64,000 nucleotides of DNA, taken from positions 643,924-707,923 of the forward strand of contig OZ246414.1 of NCBI GenBank assembly GCA_965231125.1, in the 5' to 3' direction. Below the pieces are notes generated by a model. It was not told where the DNA came from, ran no database searches, and saw only the letters and a list, made by a program, of their open reading frames with translations. Made by a program: the position numbers and the translations under genes. Position 1 is the first letter of the stretch. Each line of letters opens with the position of its first letter. The stretch comes from an uncultured Gammaproteobacteria bacterium. GTDB taxonomy: Bacteria; Patescibacteriota; Microgenomatia; Woykebacterales; RBG-16-39-9b. Shown here in pieces: positions 5,686 through 63,954 of the stretch.

Positions 5686-7461
5686 TTATTCTATCGCCAC
5701 TCTCATTACTTCTTCCACAGTAGTTATTCCTTCCAAAACTTTCATATAACCATCCTGGATAATCGTAACCATTCCCTCTTCAATTGCGACCTTTTCAATA
5801 TTGTTTGAAGGAGACCTTTCTAAAATAAGTTTGCCAATCTTATCAGTCACCGACAAAACTTCAAAAATACCAATTCTTCCGCGGTAACCTGAACCTCCAC
5901 ATTTATCGCAACCGGCCCCTTTAAAAACTTTAAATTTTTTATCTATCTCCACCTCATGAACGTCTTTTTGCTCCTCTTGAGAGAGTTTTTTTACAAAATC
6001 TTTATGGCCAATTAAATTTCCGAGCACCTGCTTAAAATCAGCGATCACCTGATCAGCTGGTACGTATTCTTTTTTGCAATTATCGCAAATGCGACGAACG
6101 ACCCGCTGGGCGATAACAGCTGTTATTGAAGATGCAAGCAAAAAAGTCTCCATACCCATATCCAAAAGCCGAGGCAAAGCTCCGGCAGCGCTGCTGGTGT
6201 GAAGTGTTGAAAACACCAAATGGCCAGTAAGGGAAGCTTGAATAGCCAAGGCAGCTGTTTCTGAATCCCGAACCTCACCTACCATTACAATATTAGGGTC
6301 TTGACGTAAAAAACTGCGTAGCCCAGATGCAAAGGTAAGACCAGCGGTTGGATTGATTTGAACTTGGTTTACACCCGGAATTTGGTATTCTACCGGGTCC
6401 TCCAACGTAACAATATTTACCCTGGGCGAGTTTATTTTAGAAAGAGCTGCAAAAAGGGTAGTTGTTTTTCCGGAGCCCGTGGGCCCAGTTATTAAAATAA
6501 TACCGTTTGGTCTAGTTATAGCCTGTTCAAAAATGCGTAGCCCCGTTCCGCGTAAACCTAGCTCTTGCAAAGTCGGGGCAGAACCGGCTTTGGGCAGAAG
6601 CCGCATTACTATCTTTTCACCGTGAACCGTTGGTAGCGTAGAAATACGGAGATCTACTATTTTATCACCAAGTTTAAAGGTAAACCTCCCATCTTGGGGG
6701 ATTCTTTTTTCATCAATCTTCAAATTAGAAAGAATTTTAATTCTAGACACCAGTGCCTCATGAACCTTTTTTGGCAGGAAAAGCCTCTCTTGTAAGATTC
6801 CATCTATCCGATAACGGACCCGAGTTTTTTCTTCCAAAGGCTCGACATGAATATCACTGGCCCCACCTTTCATGGCGTATTCCACTAAAGTCGAGGCAAT
6901 TTTTGCGACTGGCGCCTCTTTAATTATCTCTTCAACTTTTCCCAAATCCTTAATTTCTTCTTTGGCCTCAACCGTACCTTCTTCCTCTTGTAAAGCAGCT
7001 GTAACTTCGGTGGTAAGACTCTGACCGTATTTATCCTGGATGGCTTGGATAATTAAAGAAGGGGTAGAAATAAAAGGTTTTATTCTCTTAACAGATTTTC
7101 TTTCAATAAACTCAACAACTTGTAAATCCAACGGATCCGACATTGCCACCGATAAAGTTCCGCTCTCCTTATCAAGCTCAAATGGGATTAGGGTGTAACG
7201 TCTCGCCACTGGCTCGGGAATAAGCTGCAACACATCAGCAGCAATAGGTTTGGTTGTAGGATTAATAAAAGAAATTCCAAGAAGCTCTCCTCTTGCAGCC
7301 GTAAGATCTTCAAGAGAGGCAAAGTTGTGCTCCATTAGAAGCTCTTCGACGGTCTTACCCGTATTTATGGATTCAAGTTTAACTAATGAAACTTTATCTT
7401 CGGTAAGCTTACCTTGTTCAAAAAGAATGTCGGCGACGCCTTTATCTGTTGTAGTTGCCAT
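5686..7461 (-). CDS. pilB: type IV pilus assembly ATPase PilB (GspE family)
   Basis: N-terminal T2SSE_N-like region, Walker A LITGPTGSGKTTT, tetracysteine CDNC...CDKCGGSGYRGR. 591 aa. Confidence 0.9.
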   Translation of the reverse strand: MATTTDKGVADILFEQGKLTEDKVSLVKLESINTGKTVEELLMEHNFASLEDLTAARGELLGISFINPTTKPIAADVLQLIPEPVARRYTLIPFELDKESGTLSVAMSDPLDLQVVEFIERKSVKRIKPFISTPSLIIQAIQDKYGQSLTTEVTAALQEEEGTVEAKEEIKDLGKVEEIIKEAPVAKIASTLVEYAMKGGASDIHVEPLEEKTRVRYRIDGILQERLFLPKKVHEALVSRIKILSNLKIDEKRIPQDGRFTFKLGDKIVDLRISTLPTVHGEKIVMRLLPKAGSAPTLQELGLRGTGLRIFEQAITRPNGIILITGPTGSGKTTTLFAALSKINSPRVNIVTLEDPVEYQIPGVNQVQINPTAGLTFASGLRSFLRQDPNIVMVGEVRDSETAALAIQASLTGHLVFSTLHTSSAAGALPRLLDMGMETFLLASSITAVIAQRVVRRICDNCKKEYVPADQVIADFKQVLGNLIGHKDFVKKLSQEEQKDVHEVEIDKKFKVFKGAGCDKCGGSGYRGRIGIFEVLSVTDKIGKLILERSPSNNIEKVAIEEGMVTIIQDGYMKVLEGITTVEEVMRVAIE

Positions 7462-10380: not shown

Positions 10381-10578
10381 ATGGTACAAAACACACCTGA
10401 TCGTAGTCGCGATGCTGATCGGGAAATGGCGGTTGACATACTTAAGGCACTCGAAAAGCGTATCGGTCGTAAAGGAGTACTTCAAGCAATCAATGATGCT
10501 ATCGAAATTCAAGAGCTTATGGAAATAGCCGAAGAAGTTAATCGCGAGCTTGATGCGGAGAAGAAGAACTCATCTTAA
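10381..10578 (+). CDS. small hypothetical protein (65 aa)
   Basis: ORF with a GGAGG RBS and consensus promoter. Charged helical sequence with no recognisable family. Confidence 0.4.
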   Translation: MVQNTPDRSRDADREMAVDILKALEKRIGRKGVLQAINDAIEIQELMEIAEEVNRELDAEKKNSS

Positions 10579-10747
10579 TAGACCACGTGCAGCGACAGGG
10601 AATCCGCAAGGATTTGGTTTGCGCAAGCAACACCTGTCGCTTCTCTTTCAAATAATTCAGCAAAAGGTTTGACAAAGACCCATAATTGTGTTACCCTACA
10701 AAACTGTCTTGACAATATTTTTATATTGCCATAGATTATTTTTGAAC

Positions 10748-11168
10748 ATCGGAAGTTGAAAGAAGTTCCCTGGGAGCAGATTGGTAGCAAAACCTTTGTT
10801 ATCAGCCTGCTCCCGCGGAGCGCCAGTGGTGACGAGCGAATGGACCGGTAGGGAAGTTGGCAACCGAAGTACCTACCATTGCTCTGAGGTCCGCCAGACT
10901 AAAGGTGAGAAGGGCTTCAAGCCAACTTGCCAGCTCACCACCCTGTGATCAACTGCCTAATTTGAAGCCCAGTGGTTTCGGGTTAGGGTGCCAACAGTTA
11001 CAACGGGGTCCATGTGGTAAACAGCGAGCGGTCACTGGTATTTTGCTGCCGAGAAGACACGATCGAGGGCCGGTTGGATTTTCCACCCCGTCATCCGTCG
11101 CACCTCTCGGCAGCCAGAATTCCCCCGGCAGGTTTAGCTTGAACAAAGCACTGCCGGTTTCTTTTTTC
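10748..11168 (+). ncRNA. candidate structured RNA of ~420 nt, class undetermined (RNase P RNA is one possibility)
   Basis: A GC-rich (~55%) block in ~42% GC surroundings with no credible ORF. Upstream promoter TTGACA-17-TAGATT at ~10710-10738. Many perfect hairpins (GGAAGTT-GAAAG-AAGTTCC; GGGAGCAG...CTGCTCCC). 3' hairpin CCGGCAG...CTGCCGG followed by TTTCTTTTTT. Short stretches resemble RNase P conserved regions (GGTAAACAGCGAGCGG; CAGAATTCCCCCGGC) but are not conclusive. Confidence 0.4.
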
Positions 11169-11205
11169 CTTGTTAATCACCCCAAAAATTGTTAACCTAT
11201 CGTCT

Positions 11206-11901
11206 ATGGCAAGAAACGGATTGAAAGCCGTCCTTTTTGATATCTCCGGCACTCTTATTGATGATTTTGATTTAGTCGTGCAAACCGACGACATTTTTCT
11301 TCGCCGAAGAGGCAAAAGCATGAGTCGGCAGTTTTACATCGACAATTACACTCTAGACTGGAAAAAGTTTTGGGAGGACCTGGGGTTTCCACCAAGCAAA
11401 GAGCTTGTCGATGAATGGGTTGAAATTAACAAATCTCTTATAAGCGAAGGGAAATACGATCTTCACCCGGCAGTTATTAAACTTTTGGCAAAAGCCAAGA
11501 AAAGTTATAAAACGGCGGCCGTTACATCGATGTCGCGGGCAACTCTACTTGCTCATCTGAAAAGAGGGGACATACCACCTCATTTCTTCGATTTTTTATC
11601 GACTGGGGAATTAGATGTACCTCTTAAACCAGCACCAGACCAAATTCTGCTTACACTTGAAAATTTGAAAGTCCGCCCGCAAGAAGCAGTGATGATCGGC
11701 GATACTGATGAAGATGTCGTGGCCGGTAAGAGAGCCGGAACCAAAACAATCAAAGTATCTTGGGGTTACCCGGTGACGTCCTACGGACGACGTTTTCTCG
11801 CCTCGAAGGTCCGAGGCTCGAAAATAAAACAAGAAGTCTTTGCCGAACCCGACCATGTTGTTTCCAGTTTCGAGGAGTTAAAAAACTGGCTCCAAATATA
11901 G
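11206..11901 (+). CDS. HAD-superfamily hydrolase (phosphatase)
   Basis: Motif I FDISGTLIDD (DxD-type nucleophile) and motif IV MIGDTDEDVVAGKRAG. The ORF is open from 11170; the likely ATG is at 11206. Confidence 0.75.
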   Translation: MARNGLKAVLFDISGTLIDDFDLVVQTDDIFLRRRGKSMSRQFYIDNYTLDWKKFWEDLGFPPSKELVDEWVEINKSLISEGKYDLHPAVIKLLAKAKKSYKTAAVTSMSRATLLAHLKRGDIPPHFFDFLSTGELDVPLKPAPDQILLTLENLKVRPQEAVMIGDTDEDVVAGKRAGTKTIKVSWGYPVTSYGRRFLASKVRGSKIKQEVFAEPDHVVSSFEELKNWLQI

Positions 11902-11965
11902 TTTCTGTAAAACAACCGCTAAAGCTTGCCTGCAAGTCTAAATTCAATTATAATAACAAAGTTCT

Positions 11966-14482
11966 ATGGCAAATTCTGAAGACGAATCTCCAAAAGCACC
12001 TGCCGGGGATAGCAATTTAGGCAAAATCACTCCAGTTGAAATAGTGGACGAAATGCAGCGCTCGTATTTGGATTACGCGATGAGCGTTATTGTCTCGCGC
12101 GCGTTGCCAGATGTCCGCGATGGACTCAAACCAGTCCACCGCCGTATCCTTTTCGCCATGCATGAGCTTGGATTAACACACAGCGCTAAATACCGCAAAA
12201 GTGCCACTGTTGTCGGGGAAGTTTTAGGAAAATACCACCCGCACGGAGACGCCCCAGTCTACGACGCTTTAGTGCGTCTAGCTCAAGATTTCGCCATGCG
12301 CTACCCCTTGGTAGACGGTCAGGGAAACTTTGGTTCCGTGGACGGCGATCCACCCGCCGCCATGCGTTATACCGAGGCTAGAATGGCAGAAATCGCCAAC
12401 GAGCTTTTGGACGACATTGAAAAAGATACCGTCAATTTTGCCGACAATTTTGACGCGACGAGGAAAGAACCAAACCCGCTTCCCGGAAAACTTCCAAACC
12501 TTTTGTTGAACGGCTCCGCCGGAATCGCTGTCGGTATGGCCACAAACATTCCACCGCACAACCTGCGTGAAGTTGTCGACGCCACCACCCATTTGATTGA
12601 AAACCCAGAAGCCGATGTCGAGCAATTAATGAAGTTTATTAAAGGACCAGATTTCCCGACGGGTGGGGCAATTTTTGATGCTACCGAAATCACTTCCGCC
12701 TACGCAACCGGAAAGGGGAGAGTAGTGATGCGTGCAAAAGCGGAAATTGAGGAGGATAGAGCTGGTAAGTTTAAAATAATTGTTTCCGAACTTCCTTACC
12801 AAGTTAATAAAGCGCTTCTCATTGCGAGAGTCGCCGAACTTGTAAAAGACAAAAAACTCGAAGGAATCTCGGACTTGCGCGATGAATCAGACAGGCGCGG
12901 GATGAGAATTGTTTTTGAGCTAAAACGGGAGGCCAAACCAAAAAACCTCCTCAACCAGCTTTACAAACACACTTCTATGCAACTTGCCTTCAACGTTAAC
13001 ATGGTGGCTTTGGTAAACGGTACACCGCAAACTCTCACTTTAAAAAAAGTTCTAACTGAATACATTCGCCACCGCCAAGAAGTTGTTACTCGTCGCAGTA
13101 AATTTGAACTAGAAGCTGCAAAAAGAAGAGCCCATATTTTGGAAGGGTTGAAAATCGCTCTCGATCATCTGGATGCCGTGATTAAAACCATCCGCGAATC
13201 CGCCAATGCGGATGTCGCCAGAGCCAACCTGATGAAGCGCTTTAAGCTAACGGAGGTTCAAGCAACGGCTATTCTGGACATGCAGCTTCGCCGTCTCGCC
13301 GCCCTGGAAAGAAAACAAATTGAAGATGAATACAAGGCGGTTTTAAAAACAATTGCTTATTTGGAAAGCCTTTTGGCTTCACCAAAAAAGATCTTGGCAG
13401 TCATTAGTAAGGAACTAACCGAAATAAAAGAAAAATATGGGGACGATCGCCGCACGCGAGTCTACCAACAAGGAGTAGGTGATTTTTCCGAAGAAGATCT
13501 TATCCCTTCCGAACAAGCGATTGTCACCGTAACCCGCGAAGGTTACATAAAGAGAAGCCCGGTCTCCACTTTCCGCACCCAAGCCCGCGGGGGCAGGGGA
13601 GTCTCCGGCCTAACTATGAAGGATGAAGATATTGTGGCAAATTTTTTCTCGGCTAACACCCACGACTCAATAATGTTTTTTTCCAATAAAGGTAAAGTCT
13701 ACCAACTAAAAATTTACGACCTACCAGAAGGCTCGCGAGCCTCCAAAGGACAAGCAGTGGTAAACTTGATTGAAATCGAACAAGGCGAAAAAATAACCTC
13801 CATTGTTAACATTTCCAAAAACATTAAATCGGGTTTCTTATTCATGGCCACAAAAAAGGGAATTGTGAAAAAAACGGCCCTGGCCGAATTTGCCAATATT
13901 CGCCGCAGCGGAATCATTGCCATAAACCTGCAGGGCGGGGATGAGCTTTCGTGGGTTACGTTAACCGGGGGTAGTAACAATATAATAATGGTAACCAAAA
14001 ATGGAATGTCAATTTACTTTGTGGAAAGCCAAGTGCGCAATATGGGCCGCCCAACTGCTGGTGTCGTCGGAATAAAACTTAAGAGGGAGGATGAACTGGT
14101 TTGTATGGATAAAGCCGCAAAGGAAGATATGCTTTTGGTAGTGACTGAAAAAGGTTTTGGTAAAAGAAGTAAAATAGCCGATTGGCCAACTCAAAAAAGA
14201 GCCGGCTCCGGAGTAAAGGCCGCCGAAATAACCTCTCGAAACGGAAAAATAATGGCGGCGATTGTGCTTTCAAAAGAGGATAATGATTTTGTAATTACTT
14301 CCGAAATGGGACAAGTAATTAAATCTCCAATCAAAGATGTGTCCCTCTTAACTCGTCAGACCCAAGGCGTGATTTTAATTCGCCTGGCTAATAAAGACGA
14401 CAAAGTTGCGGCCGTTACTTCTATACTTAAAGAACCAAAGTTAGGAAAGGATAAAGAAATTAAAGTTTTGGGCGAAGCCTAA
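11966..14482 (+). CDS. gyrA: DNA gyrase subunit A
   Basis: [36 protein letters not shown], active-site Tyr region, C-terminal beta-pinwheel repeats. 838 aa. Confidence 0.95.
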
Positions 14483-49341: not shown

Positions 49342-49557
49342 ATGCTGGATCCATATTCAACAACTGAAATTAGTTCTACATTAATTTCTGAACTCAAGGA
49401 ATCCTTAATCGGTAAAGATTACGGATCGATCGAGATTTATATAGAATCGGGGAGAGTGGTTCAAATAACCGAGAGGGTTATTAAAAAAACAAGATTAAAC
49501 GAAACTAATAAAAAAGACGAGGTAGTTTATTGGAAACCGATAAGAAATCGTAAGTAA
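49342..49557 (+). CDS. small hypothetical protein (71 aa)
   Basis: ORF only; no family recognised. Confidence 0.35.
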   Translation: MLDPYSTTEISSTLISELKESLIGKDYGSIEIYIESGRVVQITERVIKKTRLNETNKKDEVVYWKPIRNRK

Positions 49558-49582
49558 CTTCTCAGCTCGATATAGTAGGGGA

Positions 49583-49611
49583 TTGACAGGTAGTTTTGGG
49601 GTAACTTATAA
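49583..49611 (+). promoter_or_regulatory. sigma70-like promoter (TTGACA-17-TTATAAT)
   Basis: TTGACAggtagttttggggtaacTTATAAT is a near-consensus promoter. Confidence 0.55.
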
Positions 49612-49649
49612 TCATAAACAAAAGTAATAGTTAGCCGACCGCAAACGGA

Positions 49650-49690
49650 GGCAGCTCTTCAAAGATTTGGAGAAGCTGCCTTTTGGTTTT
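49650..49690 (+). promoter_or_regulatory. terminator-like hairpin inside the 5' leader of the repeat-protein gene (possible attenuator)
   Basis: GGCAGCTCTTCaaagatttgGAGAAGCTGCC followed by TTTTGGTTTTCTT. Lies between the promoter and the AAGGGGGTGA RBS. Confidence 0.4.
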
Positions 49691-49715
49691 CTTAGATTAG
49701 GTTACGAAACTAAAC

Positions 49716-50837
49716 TTGAAAGGGGGTGAAAACATGGAAAAAAGAAAATTAATTTATGCTGCATCAAGTGCTTTTGCTGCTTTGGCTTTCTCATTGACAC
49801 CAGCTCTCGCAGCTGAAGCTTCTAACTCTACAACCGGTGCAGAATCAGACAACGATGCTAGTGTTGACACAACTAACTCTGCTAGTATTTTGCAGACTAA
49901 TACCCAAAGAGTCAGCAATGATATCTCTGTTAATGTAAACACTGGTGACAACAGTGCTGACAAGAACACCGGTGACGGTTCTGTAAGAACTGGTGACGCA
50001 AGCTCTTCAGTTAGCCTTTCAAACTTAGGCAACAAGAACTCTGCAACCCTTTCTTTCTCAGGCGCTGGAGACAGCTCAGCTTCTAACGATCACACTGGTT
50101 ACAACTCAGACAACGATGCCAGCGTTAGCGTTGACAACGAGTTAGATCTAACCCAGGCAAATGACGCCTACGTAAGCAACCGAGTTTCCGTAGACGTAGA
50201 CACTGGTGACAACAGTGCTGACAAGAACACCGGTGACGGTTCTGTAAGAACTGGTGACGCAAGTGCCGATGTTTCGATTGAGAATATGCTCAATAAAAAC
50301 AAGTTGACCGTGAACATGGCCGACAGTGGTGACCCATCAGCTTCTAACTCTACAACTGGTGCAAAGTCAGACAACGATGCTAGTGTTGACGTAAGTAACG
50401 ATGCCGACGTTTTACAAACAAACGATCTTTCAGTTTGCAATGACGTTGATGTTGACGTTGAAACTGGTGACAACAGTGCTGACAAGAACACCGGTGACGG
50501 AAGTGTAACTAGCGGTGATGCTGCTGTTACAGTGGATGTTTCCAACTCTGGAAACACTAACTCAGCTTCGCTCAATGATGCCGGCGATCCAGACAACCAG
50601 GTCTCAAATGACCACACTGGTTTTGACTCAGAAAACGATGCTGATGTCAGCATCGACAATGAATTAGATCTGACTCAAGCGAATGAATCCGACATTTACA
50701 ACTCTGGTGATGTATCGGGAGACACTGGTGACAACAGTGCTGACAAGAACACCGGTGACGGCAAAGTCACAACTGGTGACTCTTCTGACGTTGACGTTTC
50801 TGTTTCAACCGACGTCAACTCTAACAGCCTTAAATAG
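49716..50837 (+). CDS. secreted repeat protein (paralogue 1 of 3): signal peptide plus four ~87-aa Asn/Asp/Ser-rich repeats
   Basis: Signal peptide MKGGENMEKRKLIYAASSAFAALAFSLTPALA. Repeated units ...SDNDASVD..LQTN...VSN..SV(N/D)V(N/D)TGDNSADKNTGDGSVRTGDAS... Confidence 0.7.
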   Translation: MKGGENMEKRKLIYAASSAFAALAFSLTPALAAEASNSTTGAESDNDASVDTTNSASILQTNTQRVSNDISVNVNTGDNSADKNTGDGSVRTGDASSSVSLSNLGNKNSATLSFSGAGDSSASNDHTGYNSDNDASVSVDNELDLTQANDAYVSNRVSVDVDTGDNSADKNTGDGSVRTGDASADVSIENMLNKNKLTVNMADSGDPSASNSTTGAKSDNDASVDVSNDADVLQTNDLSVCNDVDVDVETGDNSADKNTGDGSVTSGDAAVTVDVSNSGNTNSASLNDAGDPDNQVSNDHTGFDSENDADVSIDNELDLTQANESDIYNSGDVSGDTGDNSADKNTGDGKVTTGDSSDVDVSVSTDVNSNSLK

Positions 50838-50840
50838 GCT
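49860..50840 (+). repeat. 4 x ~260-bp in-frame tandem repeats within CDS 49716..50837
   Basis: The core actggtgacaacagtgctgacaagaacaccggtgacgg recurs near-identically at ~49941, 50201, 50461 and 50721. Confidence 0.8.
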
Positions 50841-50963
50841 TTAACTTATCTCGGGATCTTGCCCCCAGTTGGGGGCAGGACCCGGATAAGCAGAGCTTGC
50901 GTCCTACGGACTAAAGAAATAGTTGTAAGCAGACAAGAGACTAAATATCTTGCCTGATTATAA

Positions 50964-52994
50964 TTGACTACAATAATGATAAACAAAAAACTTAGTAAGA
51001 ATTTATTAGCAGTAGTTTCAGCTTTATTAATCACTCTTGGCCCCTCGTCAATGACCGCCAGCGTAGTTTACGCTGCTCCTGCATTGCCTTCTGCACCAAG
51101 CACACCAACCAGCCCAGAGCTACCAACAGTGGAGACGGCAACACCAGACCAACCGTCTTTACCATCTTCCACAGACAGTAGCAGTTCTGGAACACAGTCC
51201 ACCCCAGACAATACCCAAACAATCGACCCTTCGGTAGACGCGGGGGATCAAACTGGAGAAGTGGGTACACCCCAAAATACATCGCTGCAAAGTGTAGATC
51301 CGTCAAGCGAGTCAACCAGTTTGGATAGCCTAGCTGGAAATGATACCACCGGCGCCGGTTCAGATAACAGCGCTAGCTCTAACACCAACTCTTCTTCAGA
51401 TCTAACCATCAACAATAACTTCTCGGGGGATAGCACTGTCTACGCCAACGCAAACACAGGGGACAATACATCTGATAAAAACACTGGGGACGGTCAAATT
51501 ATATCTGGAGACTCCGACTTAGTACTAACCGCTCTTAATGTTGATAACAATGTGAATGTCGGCACTCAAGTATTCAATGTTTACGATGATCAAACTGGTG
51601 ATTTGTTAGTTAACTATAATAATGTAAAGCCAATTTCCAACTCACCAAGCTGTGGTAACAATACTTCCTCAAACCAAACAACCGGTAGTTATTCAAGCAA
51701 CGACGCTTCAACCACCTGTACAGATCAAAACACTCTCTTAATAGATAATAATGGAAACTTGGTAAATAACTACTACTTAAGCGCAAACACAGGGGACAAT
51801 TCCGCCAGTAAAAATACTGGTAACGGCTCCGTAACAACAGGTGACGCAAATGTCGCTCTTAACGTGATTAACTTCTTAAACAATACTTTCTTAGGTGGAG
51901 CAGGGCAGTTGCTTTTGGGAGTGGTAAATGTTTTTGGAAAACTTTCAGGTAATATTGTTTTAAATATGCCTAGTGGTGGAAGCACCGCCAGTCTTGGATC
52001 TAACTCGTCCACTGCAGCTAACAACAAAACTGGTTCCGGTTCAGATAATAGCGCTTCCACTACGACTAGCAACACTAGCGATCTTTCCTTAAATAATAAT
52101 CTGAACTTAGCGAATAACATTAAACTTTTTGGTGACACGGGCGGCAACGATTCTGGAGAAAACACTGGTTCCGGGTCAACTTCTACTGGAGATGTCAATT
52201 CTAATTTGAAGGTTACAAATATCGGTAATACCAATGGCATTGGGGATGGAGGCACTTTGTGGTTAGTCCTGGTAAATAACTTAGGAAAATGGACCGGTCA
52301 GGTGTGGGGTTTTGATAGCACTGGTACAGCTTCACCTTTCTTCACTTTTTCAATTGGTACTGATGGGTCTCTTAATGCCGGGACGGGTGCTGGATCAAAA
52401 AACAGCTCTTCCAACACAACAACAAATTCTACAAGCGCCACCCTAAACAATAACGCAAATGTGAAGAACAATATATATATAAACGCCAACACTGGTGGCA
52501 ATAGCGCCGAGGAAAACACTGGCAATGGGACAATAAAAACAGGGGATGTAAACGTTGCCGCTAATATCTTGAACATGATTAATAACAACTTCATTGGAAC
52601 GCGTTTTGTTGTTACCATCGTCAATGTGTTTGGTAGTTTCCTAGGCAACGTTTTCCCAGGCGGCAGCGCCCAAGAGCAAAAAGCGATTAAGATCGGTGCG
52701 GGGACTTCGGTCGCCATCGAAGCCGGCGGTGTTGTTCGAACCACCACCAGCGTTCCACCAACAACTGGCTTTGTTTCACCTAGTCAAGAGGTCAAATCAG
52801 AATCCAAGGCAGGCAGTGGAGCCCTCGTTTCTGACTTGACTAGTCTCGCCACAAATAGTAGTGTAAACTCAATAACAAAAGTTGTCGGTAAAGACTCACC
52901 ATCACTAAAAGATTACTGGTGGGTAATTGTACCTTTATTAATATCTGCCGCATCAATAACTGCCAGAAAGAGGTTTGTATGGAAAAGTCGCTAA
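50964..52994 (+). CDS. large secreted repeat protein (paralogue 2), C-terminal TM anchor
   Basis: Signal peptide, Pro/Ser/Thr-rich linker, at least four diverged copies of the N-x-N-T-G-D/G-N-S-x-D/E-K/E-N-T-G-D/N-G motif, and a C-terminal WWVIVPLLISAASITARKRF membrane anchor. Confidence 0.7.
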   Translation: MTTIMINKKLSKNLLAVVSALLITLGPSSMTASVVYAAPALPSAPSTPTSPELPTVETATPDQPSLPSSTDSSSSGTQSTPDNTQTIDPSVDAGDQTGEVGTPQNTSLQSVDPSSESTSLDSLAGNDTTGAGSDNSASSNTNSSSDLTINNNFSGDSTVYANANTGDNTSDKNTGDGQIISGDSDLVLTALNVDNNVNVGTQVFNVYDDQTGDLLVNYNNVKPISNSPSCGNNTSSNQTTGSYSSNDASTTCTDQNTLLIDNNGNLVNNYYLSANTGDNSASKNTGNGSVTTGDANVALNVINFLNNTFLGGAGQLLLGVVNVFGKLSGNIVLNMPSGGSTASLGSNSSTAANNKTGSGSDNSASTTTSNTSDLSLNNNLNLANNIKLFGDTGGNDSGENTGSGSTSTGDVNSNLKVTNIGNTNGIGDGGTLWLVLVNNLGKWTGQVWGFDSTGTASPFFTFSIGTDGSLNAGTGAGSKNSSSNTTTNSTSATLNNNANVKNNIYINANTGGNSAEENTGNGTIKTGDVNVAANILNMINNNFIGTRFVVTIVNVFGSFLGNVFPGGSAQEQKAIKIGAGTSVAIEAGGVVRTTTSVPPTTGFVSPSQEVKSESKAGSGALVSDLTSLATNSSVNSITKVVGKDSPSLKDYWWVIVPLLISAASITARKRFVWKSR

Positions 52995-53803
52995 AGGACC
53001 TGGCCATAAAATTTAGCATTGCTGCCGCCGCTTTTGGAGCATCATTAATAATCGCTCCAAACGCTTTTGCTGCCACTGCCGACAATTCTAACACTGGAGC
53101 TGACTCAACCAACACGTCGTCGGTAGATGTCAGTAATAGTGTAAACATAGTTTCGGAGAACAACGCGTACATTAGTAATAATATTAGTATTAACGCAAAC
53201 ACTGGAGGCAACAGTGCTGATAAGAACACTGGGGACGGCAGCGTTACAACTGGCGATATAAATGGTAGTGTAACCATTATTAACGATGTAAATTCAAACA
53301 GTTTGAACACTTCGAAATTCCACTGCAGTGGTGTTTGCAAGTTCTCAGCAAATGTAAATGCTTCAAACAGCCACACTGGGGCAGACTCTGAAAATAACGC
53401 TTCAGTAAGTGTGGATAACGACGTGACGATTACTCAAACCAACGAGCAGGCTATTTCCAACTCTGTCGGTGCGGACCTTAACACTGGAGAAAATTCCGCT
53501 GACAAGAACACCGGTGACGGCAGCGTAAGAACAGGCGATATAAAATTCACGGTGAAAGTAAAAAACAGCGGAAACACAAATGTTATTGGTGGCCCCCAAA
53601 ACCCACCCGTAACACCCTCAACACCGACCCCTTCAAAACCGGTGAAGAAACCGGAAGAAGGCCAAGTTTTGGCGGCGTCTAGATTACCAAACACTGGCGG
53701 GAAACTACCGATTATGCCCAGTTTGGCTCTCATTCTAGCAGGGTTAATGTTGAAGAGTTTGGAAGAAAAATTAAGAGCTCGGTTTCTTCCCGAAAGACAT
53801 TAA
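52980..53803 (+). CDS. LPXTG cell-wall-anchored repeat protein (paralogue 3)
   Basis: Signal peptide MEKSLKDLAIKFSIAAAAFGASLIIAPNAFA, two copies of the NTGGNSADKNTGDGSVTTGD repeat, a Pro-rich stalk, then LPNTGG + hydrophobic segment + RARF tail (sortase sorting signal). Its start overlaps the previous gene's end. Confidence 0.75.
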
Positions 53804-53830
53804 TTAACTATTTTGACATTTGGCAGAAAG

Positions 53831-53860
53831 ACCCCCGAGCAATCGGGGGTCTTTTCGTTT
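53831..53860. terminator. bidirectional intrinsic terminator
   Basis: GACCCCCGAGCAATCGGGGGTC followed by TTTTCGTTT, between convergent genes. Confidence 0.6.
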
Positions 53861-54266: not shown

Positions 54267-54406
54267 CGTAAAGTTTCACCCCCTTCCAAATATCACGAAA
54301 ATTCTATTCTCCGATAGCTAAATAGTCAATACACCCAAAAATTGACCTAGTTTGATATAATAACACTGCTCAATCAATTACCGTGATGAATCGAAAGGAG
54401 AAAGGG

Positions 54407-54750
54407 TTGAACGGAGAAAATCTACTTCTCGCTAAGTGGGACGAAATAGCATCTGTCCTGAAAGCAGAAATCGATCCACATACCCGGGATATTAAGGTGC
54501 AGGAGGGAGACCTCGTTCTATAGATTTTCAGAGCAGGTGCGGCAAACAACAACTTATCCTTCTTACACATAAAGGAAGGCAGCCGGCCAGTTGGACCAAT
54601 GATCGAATACGGCCCTGTCCTAGATGTTGGATTTGAAAGAGACCATGAGGAAGACCCTGACGGGAACGTAGTAATCATCGAATTAGGACAGGAATTGATC
54701 TGGGATGTAGAGATCTACCGCGATACAAAAGTTACACTCAGCTCGCCCTA
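54407..54750 (+). pseudogene. ~115-codon ORF interrupted by a single in-frame TAG (apparent nonsense mutation)
   Basis: AAAGGAGAAAGGG RBS then TTG. Reads ...NGENLLLAKWDEIASVLKAEIDPHTRDIKVQEGDLVL*IFRAGAANNNLSFLHIKEGSRPVGPMIEYGPVLDVGFERDHEEDPDGNVVIIELGQELIWDVEIYRDTKVTLSSP. Both halves are in one frame in my reading. Confidence 0.3.
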
Positions 54751-55300
54751 GTAAAGATTGCTGCTGGCAGACCTTGGGTAAACCAAGTTTAGGCCAGCTT
54801 TTTTCTTTTTCAAGATTTTTATAACTTGAATCTAAAAACACCAATATTGATTGGTATCTCAACCTATTTTTGACACTTTACCTACAAAGTCCAGGGGCTA
54901 GGAGGCTAGCGATTTTCAACATTAATTGCCACTTTTGCCTTATCTAACAGTCTTTTTGGTAATTTTACGGAAGTAACTCCAGAAAAAATTTTTCCAATAA
55001 AGTGGAAAAAGAGAATAGCCCCAAACTAACTAAGGGAAAATAAAGTCTGCTTCAGGCAGGGGAAATAAAATTTTATAAATATATCCCGGTGGGGAGCCTA
55101 GTAACATGTCGCATAAGATACATTGTGCGACGTAGTATTAAATTGAGTCTGGATCAGTAAGAACGAGAGAAGTGGCGTTAGGGAAAAGGAAAAAATTTGT
55201 CTTGTAGTTTATTTAAAACACTTTACACTTCTATAAGTAGTCGTCTTTTATTCAAAGTCGGCACCTGGGCTATTACAGGACGTCGTTTTTAGCTTTCTTA

Positions 55301-55360
55301 AGCGCAGAGCGCGAAGCGATCTTCAGTCCGAAGGGCGCAGATCGCAAAGCGATCTATTTT
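55301..55360. repeat. two ~21-nt direct repeats, each a stem-loop, in a gene-poor AT-rich region
   Basis: GCGCAGAGCGCGAAGCGATCT and GCGCAGATCGCAAAGCGATCT. The second (AGATCGCAAAGCGATCT) is a perfect 7-bp hairpin followed by ATTTTG. Confidence 0.4.
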
Positions 55361-55693
55361 GCTTGTTACTACGATCAATATTTTAACTTTTACCCTTGAA
55401 ATATTTATAATTTGCTACCCATATAGACGTAAGAGGAAGTAGCACTCTACCAAGAGGTGCGTCAGCACCGAAAGTCTTTCGGGTTTTTTTGGATCGGGCG
55501 ATTAATTTAGTAATCTGTACTACACCCTATAGTTCAAACTTTCCACACATGAAAACTAACTATATCACACTACATCACTATCCAGCTCAGCAATAATTGC
55601 AATCCTCCAAAAAGGGGACTCGCCCGCCCCACTCCTCTACTCTAACTCGCCTGCCCGCTTTTTTTACTTTTGACTTTTGAATTTTTTAATTTG

Positions 55694-61224: not shown

Positions 61225-63954
61225 CTACTCTTTTGGCACAGTCTCTGATGAAATAGCCGCTTCCTCTTCTTGTCTAGTCCCCTCTTGTTTGCGTTCTTGG
61301 ATAACACTTGCCGGCTCAGGAAATCTAAAAATTTCCACTTCCTCACCTTGTTTCATGTTAGGTAGTCCGGGTACATTTTCCCGAACAAATGGCTTTGGCG
61401 CGGGTGCTGCCGGTGCCGGTGTTACAGGCATCGCCGGGCCCACACTCGTCGCAACCTCGATAGGAGCCTCTCTTCGTTCACCGTCAACCGGAACTTCTTG
61501 CACTTTTACTTCTTCCTGTACCGCCCAGGGGGGAGGCAATGGCGGCGCCCCTGGCCGAAACTTCGTCTCGGTCCATTTTTTAATTACTTTTTCAATTCGT
61601 TCAACATCCTTGCCGTATTTCTGGCGCGAAAGGGCTACTGCCCTATCTCTTAGTCCAGTCGCATCTGCAAACGACGGTAAAGACCGCGCGGAAAATGGCT
61701 TCGAGGATTGATCATCCACTTGGAGTTTTAAGTACATTTCGTAACGACCAAGATTTATTATGTCGTTTTCCAAAAATACTGGCGTGAACTCTCTTTCTAA
61801 AAAGTGGGCGTCTGTCGGCCCAACTCCAAAGGATATCAACGTGCCGACGTTCCCAAAAACTGCGTCTTTAACCGTCTCCGGCATTTGTTCGATATACTGG
61901 TGAGTTATAGTAAGATCCAAACGATATTTTCGGGCCTCAGATAGAACTACTGCAAAAGAATCGGTCGCAAAATTCTGAAACTCATCAGCGTAAAGGAAAA
62001 AATCGCGCCTTTGTTCCTCGGGAATATCTACTCTGCGCATCGCCGCAAATTCAAGCTGGGAAACAATCATTGCACCGAGAAGCGAAGTGTTGTTGGATCC
62101 AATTCTACCGGTTGCCAAGTTAACAAAGAAAATCTTACCGCCGTTAATTATCTCATCAACTTTTATTGTACTTTTAGGCTGTCCAACAATATTTCTAATT
62201 AACTCAGAATTCAAAAATTGGCCGACTTTGTTTTGAATTGGGCTGATTGCCTCGGTAATAAGACGCTCATTTCCTTCCATTCTCGCAAACTCATTGTTCC
62301 AAAAAGCTTTCATTTGTGGGTCGCTAATAAGACCGACAATATATTTACGGTAATCTTTATCAGTCAAAAGTCTGGTGACGGAAAGTAGCGAGGTGTTCGG
62401 CACCTCAAGCAAAGTGAGAATACAATTCTTCAAAATATACTCAAGCCTTGGACCCCAGCTTTCCGCAAAATATTTTTTAAAGACATCGACAAGGGAATCC
62501 GCCATCAGGGTTCTTTGTTTTGGATCCACCATTTCCAACATGTTAAGAGCCACTGGGTAGTCGGCATCCGCAGGGTTAAAAATTACTACGTCGTCAAGAC
62601 GGTTTTGCGGGACGAACTCCAAGAGTTCATCGATAAGTTGGCCGTGAGGATCCAGTACCGCCACTCCTTCACCAGCGCGCATGTCTTGAATTACCATGTT
62701 TTTAATCAAGGTACTCTTCCCAGTACCCGTTTTTCCAACAATGTACATGTGCTTGCGGCGATCTGGCTTTTGAATACCAAATTTTACTTGGACATCGCGA
62801 AAGATTGTCTCCCCCACGATGTTAACATTCGTTGTTGGTAGATTTAGTGGCGGCTCCCCTTTCTTAGCCCTTGTCCAAGAAATTGTCGGCGTCTCCACAC
62901 TAATATTTGGCAAGTGGAAAATGGACGCAAGTTCCTCAATATTAAGAATATAATCTCCGGAGTGGGGTTGGGGCGGGAAAAGCCTTTTTTGATAAGCCGT
63001 TAGTAAAGTTGAGGGCTCGGCTGCCTCAAAATCCTGAACGAACCCGTTTAAACTAGCCGTCGAGAACTGTTTAAATGAAGCGACAACACTTGAAAGTTTG
63101 TGGACCGCTTCTTCTTTAGAACTTCCCAAAGCGACAATTCTAATTTTCACCTCAAAGCCCAATTTTGAAAGCTTATTTTCAATCATCTTAAGATCTAACT
63201 CTTGTCCTGCCGAAAGTTTGGGTGGCGGAGCCGGGCGCTCTGGCCCAGGTGGAGGTTGCGGCCCCCGGGCAATGTAAGGAAAAATATTAGCTCCAATTGA
63301 AACTATGTGTTTTCCAACATCGACCATTATATCTTGGGGTTGAATGCTAATTGGAGAAAGACCATCTCGAACCATCTTCACGTAGTCATGGCCTCGCTCT
63401 TGCCAAAAATCGTCAACTGGTCGAATAAGGTATTGGATCCAAGCTTGCTCAATTGGTTTTTGCGTGGCCAGAGCACTAGTTATAGCGGACAATGGGTCTA
63501 CCTCAAAGTCCCGAAAAGTTTTAATTGGAAATGTAAAATCTTTGGCCAAGTCCAGTTCTGTAGCGGCAACGTTCGCCTGCGACCCAACACTTTTGGTGTA
63601 GTCAATTGCTTCTCTTATCTCCGCGTCCGGATATTGGGCGTAGATTTGGGATTCAACAAAATTTTTAAAGGTAACTGGCGTATAAACGTAAAAGCGCACT
63701 CCTTCTATGGAGGAGGCCATTTCCAGGGAAAAATGTTCTTGGGCACCGGGAGTAAAACGCAGTAGCCCGTGCAAGGAGGCAAACATTTGTTCAGCGGCTA
63801 TGGGGAGACGTTCGTTTTCACGTGGGAGTTGGATAGAAAGAAGAATTCCTTCTTCAATGTCGGATTTTTTTATACCAAGCTCACTTTTGCGTGCTTCTCT
63901 CCAAGCCCACAAAAACGAGATAAAAACGGCGATTGCTATTAAAAATATAAACAT
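61225..63954 (-). CDS. membrane-anchored P-loop NTPase, TraD/TraG/VirD4 (type IV coupling protein)-like or HerA/DUF87-like
   Basis: N-terminal TM (FIFLIAIAVFISFLWAW), ~380-aa domain, Walker A MYIVGKTGTGKSTL followed by VLDPHGQL, Walker B FFLYADEFQNF, and a Pro-rich C-terminal tail. 909 aa. Confidence 0.55.
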   Translation of the reverse strand: MFIFLIAIAVFISFLWAWREARKSELGIKKSDIEEGILLSIQLPRENERLPIAAEQMFASLHGLLRFTPGAQEHFSLEMASSIEGVRFYVYTPVTFKNFVESQIYAQYPDAEIREAIDYTKSVGSQANVAATELDLAKDFTFPIKTFRDFEVDPLSAITSALATQKPIEQAWIQYLIRPVDDFWQERGHDYVKMVRDGLSPISIQPQDIMVDVGKHIVSIGANIFPYIARGPQPPPGPERPAPPPKLSAGQELDLKMIENKLSKLGFEVKIRIVALGSSKEEAVHKLSSVVASFKQFSTASLNGFVQDFEAAEPSTLLTAYQKRLFPPQPHSGDYILNIEELASIFHLPNISVETPTISWTRAKKGEPPLNLPTTNVNIVGETIFRDVQVKFGIQKPDRRKHMYIVGKTGTGKSTLIKNMVIQDMRAGEGVAVLDPHGQLIDELLEFVPQNRLDDVVIFNPADADYPVALNMLEMVDPKQRTLMADSLVDVFKKYFAESWGPRLEYILKNCILTLLEVPNTSLLSVTRLLTDKDYRKYIVGLISDPQMKAFWNNEFARMEGNERLITEAISPIQNKVGQFLNSELIRNIVGQPKSTIKVDEIINGGKIFFVNLATGRIGSNNTSLLGAMIVSQLEFAAMRRVDIPEEQRRDFFLYADEFQNFATDSFAVVLSEARKYRLDLTITHQYIEQMPETVKDAVFGNVGTLISFGVGPTDAHFLEREFTPVFLENDIINLGRYEMYLKLQVDDQSSKPFSARSLPSFADATGLRDRAVALSRQKYGKDVERIEKVIKKWTETKFRPGAPPLPPPWAVQEEVKVQEVPVDGERREAPIEVATSVGPAMPVTPAPAAPAPKPFVRENVPGLPNMKQGEEVEIFRFPEPASVIQERKQEGTRQEEEAAISSETVPKE

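Follow-up and report, generated by a model that had tools for sequence, protein, structure and literature searches.

Why should a bacterium encode, side by side, three secreted proteins that are built from one and the same repeat and differ in how they are anchored? The question is raised by positions 49716-53860 of the 64,000-nucleotide (nt) stretch of contig OZ246414.1 that was analysed here as a whole (the window), where a scan for open reading frames (ORFs) yields a trio on the same strand, g1, g2 and g3. Their products are related Sec-exported proteins with a common unit of 87 amino acids (aa) and with three anchoring modes: none in g1, the membrane in g2 and the wall in g3. The initial annotation, made from the letters alone, had described a three-gene array of secreted proteins with a shared motif, and the ORFs, the motif counts and the signal peptides agree with this description (the signal peptides of all three proteins were read by eye from the sequence, not by a predictor). 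We propose, with moderate confidence, that the trio forms an abundant surface fibre or coat in which g1 is held by the anchored g2 and g3.

The common unit can be recognized by the motif T-G-x-N-S-A-D-K-N-T-G-D-G, which occurs four times in g1, four times in g2 and twice in g3. A hidden Markov model (HMM) built from the g1 units finds four domains in g1, five in g2 and two in g3, and among the window ORFs the repeat is confined to these three genes. Over its full length of 87 aa the unit has the signature S-x-N-x(2)-T/N-G ... Q-x-N-x-A ... T-G-x-N-x-A-x(2)-N-T-G ... T-G-D-A ... N-x(2)-N-x-N. Relatives are numerous: a word-indexed search returned at least 254 for g1 and at least 332 for g2, and the 375 relatives that were fetched contain 1,671 repeat units. 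A profile made from 70 g1-type proteins (A1) matched 3,913 cluster representatives (clusters at 50% identity) at E ≤ 1e-3, and 1,195 at E ≤ 1e-30. Judged by this profile, the family of the 87-aa repeat comprises 3,900 or more clusters at 50% identity. All organisms named by the source among the matches listed are Patescibacteria, save for one entry called “bacterium” and one JGI entry named for function; the named taxa among them are Gottesmanbacteria, Woesebacteria, Daviesbacteria, Woykebacteria, Microgenomates and, with one partial entry, Saccharibacteria.

The three architectures of the trio are discrete classes across the 375 relatives. Proteins of 200-320 aa have two units, and 17 of 25 carry LP[VIN]TG (that is, LPVTG, LPITG or LPNTG as the sorting motif) together with a transmembrane segment and a basic tail. 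Those of 380-470 aa, most of them with three to four core motifs, are without an anchor in 177 of 184 cases, and a terminal transmembrane segment without LPXTG is found in 88 of the 101 proteins of 640-820 aa. In most four-unit members (about 410 aa) the C-terminus is an acidic, amphipathic tail such as DELEDLLSQLLEGLHLSA or FEALMELLSELAELLGL (L007 6582-7919 and L008 2178-3410; L numbers denote related loci). This tail, which could act as a cap or as a docking peptide, is absent from the Woykebacteria-type g1 (366-367 aa).

No match for g1, g2 or g3 was found in Pfam (E ≤ 1), NCBIfam, PADLOC or PHROGs. Searched by sequence against the PDB, neither g1 alone nor the A1 profile had a match and the A3 profile had chance matches only (E > 0.6), so that the earlier statement that the repeat cannot be assigned to a known family stands. 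A precomputed Pfam domain was present in only two of 120 listed g2 relatives, P0206 (PF00404) and P0215 (PF22251). In the literature on surface proteins from the Candidate Phyla Radiation (CPR) and the Microgenomates we found no description of the repeat family or of the operon, and both appear to be undescribed so far.

The genes of the trio also keep their company and their order. Related loci were sought among species-representative genomes with 16 close g2-type sequences as seeds. The closest genomes for g2 are those of Candidatus Woykebacteria (41-53% identity), next to one unclassified Patescibacteria metagenome-assembled genome (MAG) at 49%; a taxonomy look-up places Woykebacteria in the Microgenomates group of the Patescibacteria group, and the organism is thus indeed CPR-like, as had been considered possible. 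The order DUF4352 gene, (DUF2292 gene), g1, g2, g3 is seen in 13 lineages, and in all 13 a DUF4352 homologue adjoins the trio: the window with its sister strain L003; the Woykebacteria-type loci L001, L006/L012, L009, L010, L011 and L013; Daviesbacteria L007; the Woesebacteria-like contig L008; Gottesmanbacteria L015; the Microgenomates MAG L016; L017; and CPR3 L014, with the DUF4352 gene in last place. A DUF2292 gene lies directly upstream of g1 in the window and in L006, L009, L015, L016 and L017, and the arrangement g1-g2(-g3) recurs in 13 additional metagenome loci. By its genes and their order, then, the locus is a conserved cell-envelope module of the Microgenomates (CPR) that is present in one CPR3 genome as well.

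Could the three proteins nevertheless act independently? In that case g2 and g3 would be separate anchored β-helix adhesins, and g1 would be a released soluble factor for host interaction, for a polyanionic matrix or for ice or mineral binding. We consider this unlikely, though well within consideration. Because the co-occurrence of the paralogues is strict and their order stays fixed across deep CPR divergence, a joint function is the more natural reading, and two further features of g1, its spacer to g2 and its uncapped ends (see below), speak in the same direction.

The free member of the trio, g1, consists of a Sec signal peptide, cleaved after ALA, followed by four 87-aa units and nothing else; it has no anchor. 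The mature protein is strongly acidic, with an isoelectric point of 4.05, 65 acidic versus 14 basic residues and one Cys. It had first been described as a 373-aa protein with a signal peptide and four repeats. The layout is correct, but the length relies on an upstream TTG, and we prefer the form of 367 aa, which is also the length in the gene calls of near-identical contigs.

The signals around g1 point to strong expression. The perfect promoter site (Table 1) is found upstream of g1 in L006, L009 and L011 as well. The leader block GCCGACCGCAAACGGAGGCAGCTCT and the order of promoter, hairpin and Shine-Dalgarno sequence (SD) are kept in L006 6544-6700, L009 6513-6705 and L011 5950-6100, and the more distant L008, L015 and L017 have a common ...GCCTCCG-TTTTTT element. 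Rfam gave no match at E ≤ 1 in 49540-51000; the leader element could be an attenuator, a 5' stabiliser or a terminator of the upstream genes. The SD of g1, AAAGGGGGTGA, is near-perfect, lies 5 nt before the ATG and is conserved across lineages. Codon use is biased too: AAC, GAC, AAG, GGT and GCT reach shares of 76%, 68%, 58%, 71% and 59% in g1, compared with 47, 41, 27, 30 and 27% in the 48 other window ORFs, and g2 resembles the background of the window. The shift of g1 over g2 recurs for AAC in 11 of 11 lineages, for GAC in 10 of 11 and for GGT in 9 of 11 (one tie); such a codon shift would reflect translational selection.

The most persistent of these signals lies between g1 and g2. The spacer of 146 nt has a folding energy of -59.5 kcal/mol (z -7.0), and 0 of 200 shuffles were as stable. 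A hairpin after the g1 stop codon is present in 11 of 11 lineages including the window (z -2.3 to -8.9), with the structure kept and the sequence not, and a second hairpin just before g2 is seen in Woykebacteria-type loci. No U-tract follows the g1 3' hairpin, and it has no Rfam match. Since its structure persists while its sequence drifts, and since it stands between g1 and the anchored paralogues, we infer that it acts as a 3' stabiliser or partial terminator that would set a high ratio of g1 to g2 and g3. If it does, a device that sets the stoichiometry of g1 and g2 in 11 of 11 lineages would argue against three proteins that act independently. On the strength of the consensus promoter, the strong SD, the biased codons and the conserved 3' hairpin, g1 would be the abundant subunit and is probably very highly expressed.

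The two anchored paralogues differ in how they are attached. In g2, a signal peptide is followed by a disordered linker of about 90 aa rich in Pro, Ser and Thr, by four diverged repeats, by a second disordered linker of about 75 aa, and by a C-terminal transmembrane helix with a basic tail. Each of its repeats is extended by a conserved hydrophobic β segment, VNVFGxLxGxI. The AlphaFold2 (AF2) model of g2 reflects this order: the repeat cores exceed a predicted local distance difference test score (pLDDT) of 90, residues 8-29 and 652-675 are helical, and residues 31-120 and 570-646 are disordered. The diverged motif copies and the C-terminal anchor that the initial annotation had ascribed to g2 are thus both present, the anchor as a hydrophobic helix followed by basic residues. 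In g3, the N-terminal Sec signal peptide, MEKSLKDLAIKFSIAAAAFGASLIIAPNAFA, is cleaved ahead of ATAD. Next come the repeats, two in number and arranged A-B, and a Pro-rich stalk then leads to LPNTG (nt 53684-53698), behind which stand a hydrophobic segment and a charged tail with RARF at its end. The C-terminus reads LPNTG-G-KLPIMPSLALILAGLMLKSL-EEKLRARFLPERH, with a tail longer than usual for sortase substrates. The two copies, the stalk and the sorting signal had been described in the same way before. Among the three proteins, only g3 has an LPXTG sorting signal. The end of g2 and the start of g3 have 16 nt in common, and this suggests that their translation is coupled.

Sortase itself is reported to be near-ubiquitous in Microgenomates (PMC6744442). 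In L007, L008 and L015 the g3 homologue is directly followed by a sortase gene, and in L016 one lies three genes upstream of the DUF4352 gene. The sortases that adjoin the trio in relatives score below every class cut-off (37-67 bits versus a class C cut-off of 160).

Two relatives have other genes at this place. In L001, a relative with 59% identity, g3 is followed by two more LPNTG proteins (12127-14266) of 173 aa and 513 aa, the latter with SdrD_B/CLIPPER domains. In L016, the position of g3 after g1-g2 is occupied by a VWA protein, a Peptidase_M73 protein (TasA/camelysin-like, a faint hit) and an S26 signal peptidase (10536-14294); these three are parts of a TasA/SipW-type fibre system, and the sortase gene stands upstream.

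What shape do the repeats take? The AF2 model of g1, based on 70 homologues, is all-β, with a pLDDT of 86.1 and a predicted template modelling score (pTM) of 0.75. Long strands run in it from the cleavage site through the last residue, without terminal caps. The missing caps are a further point against g1 as a released soluble factor. Covariation was analysed independently of AlphaFold by direct coupling analysis (DCA) on 1,528 repeat units, and the sole reproducible signal was a ladder at i+j ~103-105, from (48,57) to (27,76). It joins conserved hydrophobic positions of one arm (27-41) with those of another (64-76), both within a unit and between adjacent units; the motif T-G-x-N-x-A-x-x-N-T-G therefore lies at the tip of a two-armed unit, and the units stack. 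The single-repeat DCA suggested several registers; in the two-repeat DCA, gap columns prevailed, along with separation-87 signals indistinguishable from concerted evolution. From the models, a β-rich, solenoid-like fold class is predicted for the repeat proteins, in which the unit would form either roughly four short rungs or else one to two long arches.

In the fibre or coat that we propose, the three paralogues would occupy three depths of a Gram-positive-type envelope. g2 would be tethered at the membrane by its C-terminal helix via the long disordered linkers, and g3, as a sortase substrate, would be bound covalently to the peptidoglycan through its Pro-rich stalk. g1, probably expressed far above g2 and g3, would be the bulk building block, retained by homotypic β-sheet association with the homologous repeats of g3 and g2. 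The resulting structure could protect the envelope and/or attach the cell to a host or substrate. The sequences and models show the architectures of the proteins, the conservation of the module, the predicted fold class and the expression signals; what we infer from them is that sortase processing takes place in this genome, that g1 associates with g2 and g3, that a polymer forms, and which geometry and biological role it has. The original suggestion of adhesion or an S-layer-like surface structure remains the most sensible function class for the trio.

Several observations weigh against this proposal. With its net charge of about -51, g1 would be hindered in self-association unless its subunits were bridged by cations. 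Regarding the wall anchor, the NCBIfam LPXTG-anchor model TIGR01167 did not match g3 at E ≤ 1; short-motif models such as this one often miss members. No sortase gene was found in the 64-kb window or adjacent to the trio in Woykebacteria-type loci. The initial annotation had suggested a search for sortase genes and other LPXTG proteins, and its outcome is divided: the gene is absent from the window but stands beside the trio in some relatives. As to the fold, the five AF2 models of g1 span pLDDT values from 51 to 86. Foldseek found no significant match in the PDB (best E 0.07, template modelling score about 0.05), the g2 model yielding the same class of matches as that of g1, and the fold is therefore solenoid-like only locally and has no close solved relative. 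The codon-bias argument has no internal highly expressed reference, as the ribosomal protein genes that were sought for this purpose are not present in the window. Finally, the leader hairpin with its U-run could terminate transcripts that start at the consensus promoter.

A more specific version of the proposal is templated assembly, which we put forward only tentatively. Here g3 (and g2) would nucleate the end-on stacking of uncapped g1 into a cross-β fibre or sheath, which would both span the envelope and coat it. This structure would be CPR-specific and curli- or chaplin-like, would be the main surface structure of the Microgenomates and possibly their attachment organ, and would have arisen independently of the known functional amyloids; the identical cores within g1 (see below) would give rise to variation in repeat number.

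A geometric variant of the surface fibre or coat would be a two-dimensional, S-layer-like lattice of g1, with g3 and g2 as its attachments to wall and membrane. This is less probable than any of the readings given so far. Pfam recognizes no SLH, CWB2 or other S-layer anchoring module, and anchoring would have to fall to g3 or g2; moreover, the mature g1 has only 35 kDa, which is small for an S-layer protein.

Is the repeat perhaps a cation-binding device? The core of the motif had been likened to a calcium-binding Asp-box or TSP3-like loop, and if it were an RTX, TSP3 or Asp-box-like module, the proteins would mainly serve cation-dependent folding or ion binding. This likeness proved weak and we regard the idea as improbable. 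In the motif, Thr, Gly, Asn and Ala are invariant and the first Asp positions vary (D27/G22/N14 of 70), a pattern more in keeping with structural turns and Asn ladders than with calcium ligands. RTX, TSP3 and BNR models in Pfam did not match g1, g2 or g3. In contrast to RTX proteins and RsaA, the trio has no GGxGxDxUx nonapeptide, no HemolysinCabind match and Sec signal peptides instead of a type I secretion system (T1SS) signal. An RTX protein was rejected on these grounds and because the Asp is not conserved.

The four units of g1 are related to each other in a way that differs from the first impression. They had been taken for near-identical tandem repeats of 260 bp; the period is in fact 261 bp, and the units share 48-71% of their nucleotides and 50-65% of their residues. 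They are too diverged for Tandem Repeats Finder, which for this reason reported no array in g1. The unit pattern is A-B-A-B, with R1 and R3 65% and R2 and R4 64% identical, and g1 is therefore a duplicated two-repeat unit like that of g3. Only a core of 38 nt is identical across all four units; it occurs, as had been stated, in exactly four exact copies, at a spacing of 261 bp (0 expected by chance), and copies 1 and 2 share about 64 nt. In orthologues the cores encode the same amino acids at 60-97% pairwise identity, and the pairs that are homogenised differ by lineage. The sister strain L003, 99.9% identical, has a single synonymous change in core copy 3. The lineage-specific identity of the cores and this synonymous change indicate tracts of short intragenic gene conversion and not selection on the DNA sequence.

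The number of units is stable. Nearly all close orthologues have four, including those at 56-69% identity. A candidate exception is L026 (4501-5340), whose g1 is identical to that of L020 (1452-2552) in 840 of 840 nt, save for a precise in-frame deletion of 261 bp, one unit. Apart from the deletion it is identical also to L021 and L010; the junction falls within the core that units 1 and 2 have in common, and L026 and L020 have identical flanks over 400 nt upstream and 1200 nt downstream. From the sequence, this is either a real variant from unequal recombination or the collapse of a short-read assembly through the identical core, and inter-unit recombination in g1 thus would either occur or be mimicked by assembly. 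Ongoing recombination, which had been concluded from the near-identity, is not borne out on that ground: the units are old and diverged and four is the modal number. The homogenised cores and, if real, the candidate deletion in L026 nevertheless speak for some recombination between units. The same holds for the survey of repeat number that had been suggested, in which four units are modal and conserved and L026 is the one candidate variant.

An assembly artefact had been named as a threat to the array. A copy of g1 at 99.9% nt identity, also with four units, is present on an independently assembled contig (JGI 3300010391), and identical g2 and g3 are present in two Logan assemblies, SRR6155503 and SRR6155504. 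Because independent assemblies give the same four-unit gene, an artefact is excluded for the four-unit g1, which is genuine. That the array as a whole is an artefact or a non-coding low-complexity region is barely conceivable. The shorter gene of L026 could have arisen by such a collapse through the identical core, but independent assemblies concur in four units, thousands of homologues fall into conserved length classes, the AF2 model is confident, and conservation extends to signal peptides and anchors. Open antisense frames of 93-178 aa exist, as had been noticed; with this codon composition they are trivial.

Which known systems does the trio resemble? It would work most like chaplins and curli, by analogy and as a member of neither. 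In Streptomyces, long chaplins (ChpA-C) are anchored by sortase and short ones (ChpD-H) are secreted, and the free class assembles on the anchored class into a surface fibre layer. Chaplins, like the trio, are paralogues that share one assembly domain, one class having a sortase signal and another having no anchor; for the trio, assembly of the free class on the anchored one is proposed. The differences are considerable: the chaplin domain has about 40 hydrophobic residues and the unit of the trio 87 polar, acidic ones, with no relation in sequence or fold, and chaplins have neither a membrane-tethered third paralogue nor DUF4352 and DUF2292 partners. The chaplin domain (Pfam DUF320) does not match g1, g2 or g3. 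Curli consist of the major subunit CsgA and the surface-bound nucleator CsgB, and thus likewise of an anchored form and a free, repeat-only subunit. Compared with curli and Fap functional amyloids, the repeat of the trio has 87 aa instead of 19-23 aa, and curli need the diderm CsgG/E/F apparatus, whereas the trio would rely on Sec export, sortase and a membrane anchor. There was no Curlin_rpt match, and curlin homology was rejected, as the A1 profile, aligned with E. coli CsgA by hhalign, reached a probability of 0.4%.

Among single proteins, LPXTG-anchored β-helix adhesins of Firmicutes such as PfbA of S. pneumoniae are the nearest analogues of g3. PfbA and the binding region of SRRP from L. 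reuteri are single, self-sufficient proteins with pectate-lyase-like three-sided helices; in the trio, the anchored g3 has only two units and is accompanied by an anchorless, higher-expressed paralogue and a membrane-tethered one. Sortase-assembled pili (SpaA-B-C) also come as a three-gene cluster, as does the trio, which in L007, L008 and L015 has an adjacent sortase. However, the sorting signal is present here on one protein only, there is neither a pilin motif nor a CnaA/CnaB Ig-like domain, and the models are solenoid-like. Because of the single sorting signal and the lack of pilin folds, and with no class C sortase in the window, a sortase-assembled pilus operon was rejected.

Table 1. 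Positions of the trio, of its expression signals and of the adjoining genes; positions are those of the window, or of the related locus where an L number is given.
Feature	Position	Strand	Remarks
DUF4352 single-pass membrane protein, 192 aa	48740..49318	+	Pfam PF11611, E 8.7e-07
DUF2292-type small protein, 71 aa	49342..49557	+	Pfam PF10055; without signal peptide, cytoplasmic-looking
g1 promoter-like site	49583..49612	+	TTGACA-18-TATAAT, 12/12 consensus positions of sigma-70
g1 leader element	49642..49693	+	conserved block GCCGACCGCAAACGGAGGCAGCTCT, hairpin, U-run
g1	49734..50837	+	367 aa; ATG behind strong SD; proposed abundant subunit
First 38-nt identical core	49941..49978	+	encodes TGDNSADKNTGDG; other copies at 50202, 50463, 50724
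g1 3' hairpin	50835..50899	+	long, GC-rich, starts at g1 stop codon; second hairpin at ~50920-50966 before g2
g2	50976..52994	+	672 aa; 676 aa from TTG at 50964; proposed membrane-tethered base
g3	52979..53803	+	274 aa; 294 aa from upstream GTG; proposed sortase-linked wall anchor
Hairpin regions, Woykebacteria-type relatives	L001 9102-9226, L006 7860-8001, L009 7872-7970, L010 7884-8010, L011 7325-7446, L013 9024-9122		
Hairpin regions, other relatives	L007 7917-8001, L008 3408-3512, L015 8231-8347, L016 8270-8339		

The two genes upstream of the trio are listed in Table 1. In PHROGs, the DUF4352 protein matches phrog_806 (unknown function) only. DUF4352 is a domain of the mycobacterial phage-resistance protein Mpr (PMC12596739, PMC9262609). 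A role in defence by way of this likeness was rejected, as nothing else within the cluster supports it. L001 has an AbiEii/DUF6922 pair (6241-7136) as an insertion upstream of its DUF4352 gene.

Elsewhere in the window, about 1.4 kb between the DUF1761 and DUF5656 genes (54267-55693) are without a long ORF, the sole ORF there being one of 102 aa on the minus strand. An ORF of 909 aa at 61225-63954 (minus strand) corresponds to the locus-edge gene annotated DUF8128, DUF87 and TrwB_AAD_bind in L003, L004 and L006; its product is an ATPase resembling type IV secretion and coupling proteins, and the synteny is kept with a Woykebacteria relative. The whole 64-kb window contains no tRNA gene and no Rfam family at gathering thresholds.

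Surface proteins with β repeats, anchoring by sortase and operons of major and minor subunits are known already; what appears to be new is the arrangement of paralogues in three tiers and its restriction to the CPR. The CPR, or Patescibacteria, make up a large share of bacterial diversity and are almost all uncultivated, and studies of their cell surface have centred on type IV pili. Even under a conservative reading, the trio stands for a new protein family of large size, which, like the conserved operon, should be given a name. If it is the main surface fibre or coat, it would provide a handle on how ultra-small cells build their envelope and attach to their partners, as well as a target for antibodies or labels with which Microgenomates could be visualised and sorted, and it would represent an independently evolved case of assembly from an anchored nucleator and a free subunit.

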